A DNA stretch of 64,000 bases, taken from NCBI GenBank assembly GCA_030059675.1, contig JANVYQ010000004.1, positions 64,001 to 128,000 of the forward strand, written 5' to 3'. The stretch is from Candidatus Pelearchaeum maunauluense (GTDB lineage Archaea; Thermoproteota; Nitrososphaeria_A; Caldarchaeales; Caldarchaeaceae). Below the pieces are notes generated by a model that saw only the letters and a list, made by a program, of their open reading frames with translations, ran no database searches and was not told the DNA's origin. Positions within the stretch are counted from its first letter, which is position 1; the number at the start of each line of letters is the position of its first letter. Shown piece by piece: positions 8,463 to 48,417 of this stretch. The position numbers and the translations under genes were made by a program.

Positions 8463-8580
8463 GCGGGGGTCGCCAAGCCTGGTCAAAACCCATGGCAGAA
8501 GCCAGGCCAAGACCAGCGGCGCAGGGTTCAGGCCCCTGTCCCGAAGGGGTTCGTGGGTTCAAATCCCACCCCCCGCACCA
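8463..8580 (+). tRNA. tRNA-Leu(CAG) with 30-nt intron (8487-8516) at position 21/22; CCA encoded
   Basis: Acceptor GCGGGGG/CCCCCGC, anticodon arm CAGGG-TTCAGGC-CCCTG, long variable arm; central helix GGTC/GACC with bulges AAA and AGC. Confidence 0.9.
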
Positions 8581-11917: not shown

Positions 11918-12011
11918 TGCGGCCGGCGGGATTTGAACCCGCGACTTTGGGGCGTGCCCCTTCAGCTTGGGGTCGGGGCCCCCACGTCCTGCCTGGCTAG
12001 ACCACGGCCGC
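11918..12011 (-). tRNA. tRNA-Gly(CCC)-like gene with about 20 extra nt (intron 11954-11973 if at 37/38) and an aberrant anticodon loop
   Basis: Acceptor GCGGCCG/CGGCCGC-A, intact D and T arms, stem TGGGG/CCCCA; no U33 in any single-intron parse. Confidence 0.65.
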
Positions 12012-40282: not shown

Positions 40283-40888
40283 TTGTTAAAACTCATTAAA
40301 GCCCTCCTAGTACGTATCTCGCGTTTCCTAAAGTACTCAGGTAAGGATGTTATTGCGCGCCGCTATTTTGTCTTAAGCGTCTTTGACGGAACCCTAGCCG
40401 CCTTCGGGATAGTTGTTGGGGCTAACTTTGTGAGGGGCACAAGCCCAGCCACGATAGTGGCCGCTGGTATAGGGGCCGCCGTGGCCATGCTCATATCAGG
40501 TGTTACTGGGAGTTTCATGACTGAGACTGCCGAGAGTAAGAAGAGGTTGAAGGAGATTGAGGAAGCCATGTTGGCCGACATGGATGAGAGCATAGTTGCG
40601 GAGGCTGGAAGCTACGGCGCTATAATAGCAGCGCTCATCAACGGCTTGGCTCAATTCGCAGCGGCAACAACTGTGCTCCTACCATACATAATATCACTAT
40701 TCTACCCAACAATAGTGGGGATAGCGCTCTACGCCTCCTTCGCGATAGCTCTGGCCATGATATTCACTCTGGGAACGATACTAGCCAAGGTATCGCGCCA
40801 GAATATACTCGATATGAGTATAAAGATGCTCGCGGTCGGGCTTCTCGCCATAATGCTGATACTCCTACTACAGTTCTTCGCTGGCTAG
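40283..40888 (+). CDS. VIT1/CCC1-like transporter
   Basis: RRYFV..FDG; ETAE; follows DUF211. Confidence 0.8.
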
Positions 40889-41962
40889 CCTGTAAGAAAT
40901 TTTAGAAGCTCACGCGGCTGGAAGACCCCTTTCTCCGTTATTATTGCGCTGACAAGCTCTGGCGGCGTGATGTCAAAAGCGGGATTTAACGCGTGTGCGC
41001 CGCGCGGCGTTATCCTTGTACGACCAACATAATGAACTTCATCCTCGGAACGATGCTCAATAACGACCTCGTCAACCCGCTTCCTGAGGTCAACCGTTGA
41101 CATGGGAGCAGCTACGTAGAAGGGAATTTTGAAGTAGTTCGCATTCACGGCAAGGGTTAGAGTCCCTATTTTATTTATTACGTGCCCCGTCTGCGCCAGT
41201 ATGCGGTCGGCGCCCACTATCACTTTATCCACCTTGCCCTGCGACATTAGAAACCCAGCCATGTTATCTGTTATGACTGTTGTAGGTATTCCGTCGCGCA
41301 TAAGTTCGAAGACTGTGAGGCGTGCTCCCTGGAGGCGAGGCCTAGTCTCACTGGCGTAAACCTCTATCCTCTTACCCTGCTCCACGGCAGCCCTTATGAC
41401 CCCCAGAGCTGTTCCATAGCCTACTGTGGCGAGTGCCCCCGCACTCTGCTGACCCAGCGGTAAACGGCTTGGGTCATTTACAGAGCGTGAGCACCCTATC
41501 GCCGTCGTTAAGCAGCTCGGCGCCAAACCTGCCTATCGCCTTATTCGTCTCCACATCCTCGTCAGCCATCTTTAGAGCTTCTAAGAGGACAGCTTGACGT
41601 ACGTCGTCAGCGTCTCCATCGGTTCTACGAGCCTTCTCCATCACCCGCTCAATAGCCCAGAATAGGTTAACGGCAGTAGGCCTGGTTGATGCTAGATACT
41701 TCGCAGCTTCCTCAAGCTCGTTAAGAATCTCTTCTCTGCTTTTTGCGTTGGACTTTACCGCGCAGAGGGCAAGTCCCATGGCGGCGGCAACGCCTATTGC
41801 TGGGGCTCCCCTAACAACCATGCGCTTAATAGCCTCACCAACCCCGCGGTAGTCTCTAAACCTTATAAAGCGAAACCTCTGGGGAAGGGCTGTCTGGTCT
41901 ATCATAACAACCTCAGACCTAGAGTCATCCCAGTAGATTGTTCGTATCTCCTTCTTCATCAT
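40885..41962 (-). CDS. mtnA: Methylthioribose-1-phosphate isomerase in two exons (41962-41478, 41443-40885); 347 aa after splicing
   Basis: VRGAPAIG and RPTAVNL in exon 1; [28 protein letters not shown] in exon 2. Confidence 0.9.
41444..41477 (-). other. 34-nt BHB intron in mtnA mRNA
   Basis: Central CTGT/GCAG, bulges AAA and AGT, inner helix TGACCCA/TGGGTCA; excision gives TGT-AAT-GCG (C-N-A). Confidence 0.88.
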
Positions 41963-42020: not shown

Positions 42021-42992
42021 TCATGAGGAGGCGAGCGCCTCCTCTTCGTATGACAAGACGTCAACAGGTTTCCCAGTTTTAGCCGAGTGGAGTATGGCCT
42101 CCGCTACGAGCTCGGCGGTGTAACCATCACCCACCCCCACCAGCGGCTCTCTTTTACTCCTAACACACTCTATAAAATGCTCCAACTCAAGACGCAGCGG
42201 CTCACTATACTTTATCATAGGCATCTTAACCGCATCCGCTTTCTCTATGGTGAGCTCCTGTTCTATGAACTTTAAGCTAATCACACCATCATCACCAGTT
42301 ATGTGCATCTCCCTCTTCTTACGCGGCGTGAGCCAGTTAGCTTCTATGAGGGCGCTTCTCCCGTTGGTAAATGTGAGAGTAGCTTGTATGTGGTCTTCAA
42401 GTCTATGTCTCAAAGAGCCGCCGCGCGCATACACGTTGAGAGGTGTTGAGCCAAATATGTAGGTTGTTAAATCTATGTCATGTATCGCCGTGTCCTTGAC
42501 AACCCCCACGTCTCCTATCCTCTCAGGCCAGCTTCCAATCCTCCTACTATACGAGAGAATTATACTCCCTATCTCGCCCTGGTCAAGAAGCTCCTTAGCA
42601 GCTTTAACCACTGGGTTAAACCGCTCAAGAAACCCCACCATAACAACCGTATTACTGGATTTCGCGGCATCAACTATCTTTATAGAATCCTGTATGCTAG
42701 TGGCCATCGGCTTCTCAATCAATACCGATATTCCACGTTCTATTGCTTTTAGAGAAAGCTCGGCATGCGTGGTTGATGGTGTGCATATTGTTATAGCGTC
42801 TGGCTCCACTCTATCTAATAACGTATCATAGTCCGTGAAGTATTTTGGTATTTGGTACTTCTTGGCAGCGTTCTCTGCGCGTGTGGCGTCTATATCGCAG
42901 ACGCCAACTATAGTGCATCTTTCCAGCTCCCGAAGAATCCTCAAATGGTTTCTGCCCCAGAAGCCAGCGCCTGCTACGGCAACCCTAACCAT
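42021..42992 (-). CDS. Gfo/Idh/MocA oxidoreductase (nucleotide-sugar dehydrogenase-like)
   Basis: GAGFWG, EKP, RFNP, DTAIHDID. Confidence 0.9.
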   Translation of the reverse strand: MVRVAVAGAGFWGRNHLRILRELERCTIVGVCDIDATRAENAAKKYQIPKYFTDYDTLLDRVEPDAITICTPSTTHAELSLKAIERGISVLIEKPMATSIQDSIKIVDAAKSSNTVVMVGFLERFNPVVKAAKELLDQGEIGSIILSYSRRIGSWPERIGDVGVVKDTAIHDIDLTTYIFGSTPLNVYARGGSLRHRLEDHIQATLTFTNGRSALIEANWLTPRKKREMHITGDDGVISLKFIEQELTIEKADAVKMPMIKYSEPLRLELEHFIECVRSKREPLVGVGDGYTAELVAEAILHSAKTGKPVDVLSYEEEALASS

Positions 42993-48302: not shown

Positions 48303-48417
48303 GGGCCCGTAGCCTAGAATGGATAGGGCGTCGGCCTGCGGAGCCGGAGAGGGACAGCATGAAAAAGGGAGCGCGGTCCCCCGCAAGTCCCGGGTTCAAG
48401 TCCCGGCGGGCCCACCA
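48303..48417 (+). tRNA. tRNA-Arg(GCG) with 37-nt intron (48350-48386) at 45/46; CCA encoded
   Basis: TCGGC-CTGCGGA-GCCGG; bulges AGA and AAG, inner GGGAC/GTCCC; splicing restores AGGTC. Confidence 0.9.

Follow-up and report, generated by a model that had tools for sequence, protein, structure and literature searches.

The window considered here is a stretch of 64,000 nucleotides from the archaeon Candidatus Pelearchaeum maunauluense (contig JANVYQ010000004.1, positions 64,001 to 128,000 of the forward strand), and its minus strand carries a gene of the IF-2B/MtnA family, mtnA, which is split into two reading frames directly after the codon of the catalytic cysteine. The 34 nucleotides at 41444-41477 that lie at this break are in all likelihood an archaeal bulge-helix-bulge (BHB) intron, placed within the coding sequence of mtnA and spliced from the mRNA by the endonuclease EndA and the ligase RtcB. 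In other words, mtnA is very probably the second archaeal protein-coding gene that requires RNA splicing. The anatomy of the insert, the covariation of its helices, its distribution among related genomes, the selection acting on its exons and the presence of the enzyme genes are direct observations, and it is from these that the case for splicing is built.

One gene in two reading frames

The upstream open reading frame (ORF) of mtnA ends in V-L-T-L-C-K-stop, and the downstream frame starts with S-A-G-A-L-A-T. At the break, the minus strand reads TGT (Cys) at 41482-41480, followed by AAA and then by the stop codon TGA at 41476-41474. The two halves cover positions 2-115 and 117-280 of the Pfam profile PF01008, positions 1-155 and 157-331 of the NCBIfam profile NF004700, and residues 3-156 and 158-333 of PDB chain 1t9k, the methylthioribose-1-phosphate (M1P) isomerase of Thermotoga. 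In each of these alignments the halves abut with exactly one residue missing, and they are therefore one gene. The top NCBIfam models for the halves are all those of S-methyl-5-thioribose-1-phosphate isomerase, with the model for ribose-1,5-bisphosphate isomerase far lower. Specifically, the C-terminal half alone reaches 260.9 bits with TIGR00524, for which the cut-off is 185.85. Each half alone remains below the equivalog cut-offs, which are exceeded by the simple sums of the two (383 bits for TIGR00512 and 428 bits for NF004326), such summed half-gene scores being a rough measure only. The source assembly is a 1.79-Mb draft in 21 contigs that is 94% complete, and the sole other IF-2B-family match in it is a distant paralog with 34% identity.

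In structural alignments, the cysteine just before the break corresponds to residue 135 in PDB chain 5yfj_A and to chain residue 181 in 2yrf_A. In the second half of the gene, the aspartate of a GADR motif is aligned and identical in five alignments with M1P isomerase structures of the PDB. In the B. subtilis M1P isomerase, we take the catalytic residues to be those numbered Cys160 and Asp240. For the homologue PH0208, represented by 5yfj_A, Cys135 and Asp204 have been named as catalytic (PMC5789824), and the initial claim that the insert follows the active-site cysteine codon holds by homology with that chain.

Once the insert is removed, the restored frame runs from the ATG at 41962 to the stop codon at 40885-40887 and comprises 161 + 1 + 185 = 347 codons. 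An unspliced mRNA would give only a 162-residue N-terminal fragment, because the stop follows two codons after the cysteine.

Anatomy of the insert

Excision of positions 41477-41444 joins AA to T and yields TGT-AAT-GCG, that is, the family motif C-N-A-G, when the cuts are placed between bases 2 and 3 of each bulge, the rule used for cbf5 (PMC2738675). When both cuts are shifted by one base, the triplet becomes AGT (Ser) or AAA (Lys) in place of the asparagine codon. These features had been proposed in an earlier reading of the letters of the window (hereafter the sequence-only reading), and on re-reading the coordinates of the 34-nt insert, its helix and bulge geometry, the stop codon, the C-N-A-G junction and the 347-aa product all proved exact, while the consequence of a one-base shift was reproduced. 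The features are collected in Table 1.

The central helix of the insert consists of four base pairs, including one G-U. A 76-nt stretch with the insert folds better than 200 of 200 shuffled versions of it (z = -4.06). When the fold of the window is constrained to the BHB form, the outer helix is made of CGC/GCG (41487-41485 with 41442-41440) followed by eight further base pairs (41496-41489 with 41438-41431), and an unpaired U at 41484 faces the 3' bulge. The sequence-only reading had called the outer helix weak: with 3 + 8 bp in the constrained fold this is wrong for the present genome, though it is true that not every family conserves this helix. A scan of window positions 41200-41750 with Rfam returned no family at E <= 1, and a blastn-short search with the BHB region (41430-41500) against the whole assembly matched only the region itself, with no second copy found. 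Since the genome holds the insert only once, an origin from a repeat or mobile element was rejected.

Table 1. Coordinates of mtnA, of the predicted intron and of the cbf5 insert. Positions are those of the window, unless a locus or contig is named.
Feature	Position	Strand	Description
mtnA exon 1	41478..41962	-	From the first ATG (41962) to base 2 of the split Asn codon; 161 residues ending in Cys, plus AA
Outer exon-exon helix, 5' strand	41485..41496	-	41485-41487 and 41489-41496 pair with the 3' strand
Central helix, 5' strand (CTGT)	41480..41483	-	Exon: the Cys codon and the single base before it; pairs with 41446-41449
5' bulge (AAA)	41477..41479	-	Unpaired in the minimum-energy fold; predicted cut between 41478 and 41477
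Predicted BHB intron, 34 nt	41444..41477	-	Holds the in-frame stop TGA 41474-41476
Inner helix, 5' arm (TGACCCA)	41470..41476	-	Pairs with 41450-41456
Intron hairpin loop	41457..41469	-	Length and sequence differ between genomes
Inner helix, 3' arm (TGGGTCA)	41450..41456	-	Pairs with 41470-41476, 7 bp
Central helix, 3' strand (GCAG)	41446..41449	-	Intron sequence; pairs with CTGT
3' bulge (AGT)	41443..41445	-	Predicted cut between 41444 and 41443; T is the third base of the Asn codon
Outer exon-exon helix, 3' strand	41431..41442	-	GCG 41442-41440 plus the 8-base strand 41438-41431
mtnA exon 2	40885..41443	-	T of the Asn codon plus 185 codons including the GADR Asp; stop 40885-40887
cbf5 BHB insert, 23 nt	L134 1797-1819 = G000:C9:2441-2463	-	Outside the window

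According to the mechanism that we propose, the intron would be transcribed together with mtnA and, in the pre-mRNA, the exon sequence CUGU would pair with GCAG of the intron. This would form a 4-bp helix flanked by two 3-base bulges, with the 7-bp hairpin of the intron inside and the exon-exon helix outside. EndA, probably of the broad-specificity alpha2-beta2 type, would cut after base 2 of each bulge. An RtcB-type ligase would then join the exons to give TGT-AAT-GCG (Cys-Asn-Ala) and the 347-aa enzyme, and the intron would probably be released as a small circle.

Directly upstream of mtnA, and on the same strand, lies an ORF of 323 aa (42021-42992), whose end is 59 nt away from the start codon of mtnA, and the two genes may be co-transcribed.

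Inserts at the same codon in related genomes

The closest named relatives of the source genome are records of Candidatus Pelearchaeum, Archaeon HR01 and metagenome-assembled genomes (MAGs) of Candidatus Caldarchaeum, filed under Caldarchaeales or 'Aigarchaeota'. Thirty mtnA loci were recovered from 41 related genomes, nine with an insert at the same codon and 21 with an uninterrupted T-H/Y-C-N-A-G. Within the family, the gene is interrupted in 9 of the 16 genomes with a full-length mtnA match. In a 401-genome sample of the phylum, more short open mtnA frames were present in five other families among the matches listed, beyond which there are 232 further mtnA matches. Twenty additional loci were chosen for their short open frames: 19 carry an insert of this kind, whereas L133 shows a plain frameshift instead. 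This last locus (G355:C72:4600-6317) possesses an intron-less C-N-A-G junction and loses its frame a few codons later, apparently by a one-base deletion. This is a break of another kind, due either to a frameshift or to faulty assembly of a MAG that is 80% complete.

A search for the motif in the same sample found it in 29 of the 401 genomes, with one match each and all in six families (coded f1, 9 of 17 genomes; f13, 7 of 8; f22, 2 of 2; f35, 9 of 10; f42 and f59, one each), while the reversed control pattern was matched in none (0/401). In total, 28 junctions were read, corresponding to 26 distinct sequences, with inserts of 19-34 nt at the identical codon. Cutting after the second bulge base gives TGY-AAY-GCN-GGN in all 28. 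Taken modulo 3, the insert lengths fall into classes of 10, 11 and 7. All 10 in-frame inserts hold a stop codon and the other 18 shift the frame; therefore, no full-length protein can be obtained from any of these 28 genes unless the insert is removed.

Among public records, the insert is present in Pelearchaeum, in HR01, in three Caldarchaeum sp. MAGs and, with a length of 28 nt, in one Bathyarchaeota MAG; a Ca. Caldarchaeum subterraneum MAG and Ca. Terraquivivens are without it. In a MAG record of the same genus as the source, the loop is one base shorter and the insert measures 33 nt. Moreover, intron-bearing and intron-less mtnA genes are closely related within a Caldarchaeum-like genus group, and there the intron-less junction is exactly the one that the cut rule predicts. 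Metagenome contigs returned 80 loci, nearly all about 61-66% identical. The closest three comprise two with a 27-nt BHB insert (L135 and L136) and one intron-less locus (L137), and among these three no spliced, cDNA-like copy of the intron-bearing allele was seen. The protein tree requires at least three changes of intron state, two of them forced by well-supported branches. No origin by gain or loss is claimed, because the rows from outside the order were chosen for having the insert and the tree is unrooted.

The sequence-only reading had asked for an alignment of mtnA across relatives, which revealed recurrent BHB inserts at one site, intron-less sisters and compensatory changes. It had also named relatives whose inserts lack BHB geometry as grounds for refutation; the 28 junctions read all have the same geometry.

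Covariation and folding

The helices of the insert are maintained while their sequences change. Across the 26 distinct sequences, the central helix is always exactly 4 bp long and each of its 104 cells pairs. At positions 1-3 of the inner helix, pairing is likewise complete (78 of 78 cells), with exchanges between U-A and C-G, G-C and A-U, and A-U and G-C, and all seven consensus pairs of the inner helix vary on both sides. RNAalifold recovers the 4-bp helix, the 3-base bulge and the 7-bp inner helix from the sequences alone. Paired cells amount to 95.4%, versus 22-50% when the partners are slid, and 64 cells are changed on both sides, where shuffles have 21.5 on average. The covariation score of 0.610 compares with at most 0.175 in the controls and was reached by 0 of 500 shuffles, a count that is not a probability since the sequences are related; the slid controls keep this relatedness and still fail. 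As for the bulges, the 5' one reads AAA in 21 of the 26 distinct sequences and AAT in the other 5, and the third base of the 3' one is T or C in all 26.

In minimum-energy folds computed at 37 °C, the central helix, the free 5' bulge and the inner helix are kept together in 20 of the 28 inserts, and bases 1 and 2 of the 3' bulge are likewise unpaired in 20 of 28. With an inner helix in all of them and a variable outer helix, the mtnA inserts as a class fit the relaxed BHB form (HBh'), which has a flanking helix on one side, whereas the strict form (hBHBh') has one on either side. Hetero-oligomeric endonucleases are reported to accept this relaxed class (PMC2738675; PMC5829648).

As a separate observation, the exon flanks of the insert (41425-41520 and the equivalent segments elsewhere) can pair with each other far outside the BHB itself, reaching -31.5 kcal/mol in one locus (L003). 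The same complementarity is seen in two intron-less close relatives (L009 and L010). It could be what is left of the outer helix, or could simply follow from the conserved D-G-D and A-T-V-G codons.

Selection on the exons

The 28 genes with an insert, spliced in silico, and the 21 without one are all open over 318-348 codons (49 of 49). For pairs of intron-bearing genes, the ratio of nonsynonymous to synonymous substitution rates (dN/dS) lies between 0.014 and 0.43 in 21 of 22 half-gene comparisons, the remaining one being saturated. Both mtnA exons are under purifying selection, and the gene is in use.

Splicing enzymes and a second interrupted gene in the same genome

The assembly encodes two EndA paralogs, located at G000:C16:3642-3899 and G000:C10:9779-10036, with PF01974 above its cut-off twice. 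The first aligns over its full length to PDB chains 3p1z_B, 3ajv_B, 2cv8 and 2zyz_B (E = 4e-49 to 3p1z_B), which we take to be catalytic subunits of crenarchaeal heterotetramers. The second is divergent and aligns to chains 3p1z_A and 3ajv_A with E about 3e-4. RtcB is also present (PF01139, 575.9 bits). Its frame (G000:C20:102214-103527, minus strand) is 561 aa long against 426 positions of the Pfam profile, and the protein may carry an N- or C-terminal extension or an insertion.

Introns are predicted by ARAGORN in 19 of the 44 tRNA genes, a few of them implausibly long. In the related Ca. Caldiarchaeum subterraneum, introns in 13 of 46 tRNAs and a heterotetrameric endonuclease are reported (PMC3082918). 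Within the window, ARAGORN with introns allowed places a tRNA-Ala (GGC) at 8463-8580 (+) with a 25-nt intron and a tRNA-Arg (GCG) at 48303-48417 (+) with a 37-nt intron. A plain tRNA scan of the window finds only a tRNA-Gly at 11918-12011, which at 94 nt may hide a non-canonical intron.

The cbf5 gene of the same genome is interrupted as well. Specifically, 23 nt lie between bases 1 and 2 of the catalytic aspartate codon (G/AT, the slash marking the split), and the fold of this insert is that of a BHB (z = -4.77) whose outer helix has 9 bp. Exon 1, with the DKCLD domain, ends in G-G-T-L, and exon 2, with TruB_N positions 17-149, TruB_C_2 and PUA, begins P-A-V-S-G-V-L-P. The aspartate codon is the published site of the cbf5 intron, which the 2009 paper lists only for Desulfurococcales and Sulfolobales (PMC2738675). 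The cbf5 frame stops at the same point in 36 of the 41 related genomes of the order, four others having a full-length frame and one a partial match, and a short insert is found in 12 of the 12 junctions read. The splicing of mtnA is much easier to accept because, in the same genome, the essential cbf5 must be spliced likewise.

A genome-wide script for BHB-interrupted genes returned 519 candidates, or 161 with a stricter filter. Its criteria were a 4-bp helix with two 3-base bulges, a flanking helix, and a cut that would fuse two open frames, neither of them shorter than 90 codons. It recovered mtnA and missed cbf5, presumably because the exon-1 frame of the latter is shorter than 90 codons. 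The list was set aside, since it is dominated by junctions between neighbouring genes and is unsortable without homology data.

Weighing the proposed intron and its alternatives

That the tRNA-splicing machinery processes the mtnA mRNA had been proposed by the sequence-only reading, and all the comparative tests run on the insert support it. A number of points weigh against it. First, cleavage by EndA, ligation by RtcB and the intron circle, and thus the splicing of mtnA itself, are what we infer from sequence, a look-up of RNA sequencing runs for mtnA having listed none, and the alignments of the divergent EndA paralog support only weakly its assignment as a putative beta subunit. Second, in the minimum-energy fold of the window the central helix grows to 8 bp and the 3' bulge is hidden, this fold being 3.1 kcal/mol more stable than the BHB form. 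All three bases of the 3' bulge are free in only 5 of the 28 minimum-energy folds, and most often the third base pairs with an exon A, leaving a 2-base bulge. Third, the outer helix is weak in two families (f22 and f35). Its median energy is -20.2 kcal/mol in intron-bearing and -13.1 kcal/mol in intron-less genes (p = 0.0097), an enrichment that is suggestive only, as the sequences compared are related and thus not independent, and G+C content may underlie it. Finally, the motif used for the count across the phylum was built from known cases, so that differing inserts would escape it.

The alternative that survives best keeps the same mechanism and gives it a purpose. Splicing would act as a control valve for the synthesis of MtnA, through competition between folds or through the splicing capacity of the cell, an idea close to the 'gating' of methionine salvage first suggested for this insert. 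It is compatible with the two competing folds within 3.1 kcal/mol in the window, with the retention of the intron in six families and with the truncated product of the unspliced mRNA, which would be devoid of the GADR aspartate of exon 2. However, the competing extended helix is not conserved, and sister lineages have lost the intron precisely and keep mtnA, and we regard such a valve as unlikely. Most simply, the mtnA intron is a tolerated passenger, persisting where invariant exon bases give half of the central helix.

It is less probable that mtnA is a split gene, whose halves are translated separately and assemble into an active enzyme around an insert that would be just an intergenic spacer. 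Such an arrangement would account for a stop codon two codons after the cysteine at the end of exon 1 and for the TTG-initiated ORF that spans the C-terminal half (40885-41526). The break, however, falls inside the conserved C-N-A-G, with the asparagine lost from both pieces. Moreover, nothing in a spacer would call for compensatory changes that preserve a 4-bp helix, a pair of bulges and a hairpin, nor would a single cut rule then recover the family motif in all 28 junctions, and intron-less relatives encode a single chain.

Slightly more remote still is that ribosomes cross the insert, by frameshifting or by translational bypass of the phage T4 gene 60 type, with no RNA splicing. The stop codon and the hairpin directly after a possible take-off site do recall T4 gene 60, for which such an arrangement is reportedly found. 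Bypass needs matching take-off and landing codons, whereas the codon after the cysteine and the triplet of the 3' bulge are identical in no more than 3 of the 26 distinct sequences. In 21 of these 26, the take-off codon would be AAA (Lys) and not the asparagine codon of the family. The insert lengths fall into all three classes modulo 3, and what is conserved is the BHB architecture, in which the central helix measures exactly 4 bp throughout.

Least probable of all is that the gene is a pseudogene in decay or that the break is an error of assembly or sequencing. The genome is indeed only a 21-contig draft, and the mtnA of genome G355 (locus L133) does bear an apparent plain one-base frameshift with no insert, but the motif has one match in each of 29 separate genomes, the 28 inserts read lie at one codon and are each removable in frame, dN/dS is far below 1 in both halves, and no other stop occurs in any of the 49 spliced or contiguous ORFs. 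The split gene, the bypass and the pseudogene or artefact, even taken together, remain improbable, and a BHB intron spliced from the mtnA mRNA is the reading retained here.

The mtnA and cbf5 introns both lie at invariant catalytic motifs, and this would be because an intron that depends on exon bases persists only where those bases do not drift. A tentative extension, to which we give a modest chance, is that the two genes are the first to be seen of a larger, so far unrecognised class in this phylum, namely protein genes with 'exon-anchored' BHB introns, and, more boldly, that the splice works as a checkpoint. Introns of this class could survive only where coding bases never change, which could explain why both sites are at codons of catalytic residues. 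With regard to the checkpoint, the output of the enzyme would follow EndA/RtcB capacity or the folding state of the RNA, as the unspliced fragment would be without the aspartate of exon 2.

If the intron is confirmed, mtnA would represent the second case of a BHB intron in coding sequence, in this instance in a metabolic enzyme and kept in six families, and the tRNA-splicing system would serve ordinary metabolism genes as well. In intron-bearing genomes, gene callers will give mtnA as two fragments or as a pseudogene; therefore, the capacity for methionine salvage would be under-called in reconstructions of Caldarchaeales and related organisms. In addition, the 26 distinct sequences are natural variants of a minimal non-tRNA substrate, useful for studying recognition by broad-specificity endonucleases, and the position at catalytic codons shared by the mtnA and cbf5 introns provides a search rule for further cases.

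Comparison with known systems

The pre-mRNA intron in the cbf5 gene of Crenarchaeota is said to have been described by Watanabe in 2002. In 2009 there was 'no confirmation' of pre-mRNA splicing in any other gene (Yokobori 2009, PMC2738675). By 2020 cbf5 was still the only prior mRNA example, beside a new case in a 5' untranslated region (5' UTR) (PMC7714728), and a 2023 review counted two spliced archaeal genes and expected more (PMC10485636). No report of an intron in mtnA was found in the literature searched, most subscription journals and supplements lying outside it, so that an earlier report is possible. The main text of a paper on Caldarchaeales MAGs (PMC10547907) contains none of the terms mtnA, methylthioribose, methionine salvage, intron or pseudogene.

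The cbf5 intron resembles that of mtnA in several respects. Both are short BHB inserts in coding sequence, of 16-44 bp as published for cbf5 and 19-34 nt in mtnA. Both are cut, or would be cut, between bulge bases 2 and 3, often have a relaxed motif and are linked to a hetero-oligomeric endonuclease. Furthermore, both are found at the codon of a catalytic residue and have a patchy distribution with precise losses. The genes themselves differ, since cbf5 encodes an RNA-modification enzyme and mtnA a metabolic isomerase. In cbf5 the catalytic codon itself is split (G/AY, Asp), whereas in mtnA the split codon is the one after the catalytic residue (AA/Y, Asn). The cbf5 intron was listed in 2009 only for Desulfurococcales and Sulfolobales, while the mtnA intron occurs in the source order and in five other families of the phylum. 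Finally, the splicing of cbf5 was demonstrated by cDNA and by in vitro cleavage, whereas that of mtnA is deduced from comparison.

HVO_1309 of Haloferax volcanii is a further mRNA with a BHB, which there is cut by the splicing endonuclease (PMC7714728; PMC10485636). Unlike that of mtnA, this intron is located in the 5' UTR, with no reading frame dependent on it, and the endonuclease of the host is described as of the alpha2 type (PMC10485636). Archaeal pre-tRNA introns, including those at non-canonical positions, share with the mtnA insert the same motif and would share the same enzymes. The mtnA motif, in contrast, is found without a tRNA body; the exon strand of its central helix is coding sequence, and the outcome would be a restored codon.

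In eukaryotes, HAC1 and XBP1 are instances in which a short mRNA intron is removed independently of the spliceosome by a protein endonuclease, after which a tRNA ligase (RtcB in animals) joins the exons and a changed protein results. The endonuclease is in that case IRE1 and not EndA/TSEN, the motif is a pair of stem-loops, and a regulatory role is established for HAC1/XBP1. A 2026 review lists HAC1/XBP1 splicing beside tRNA splicing.

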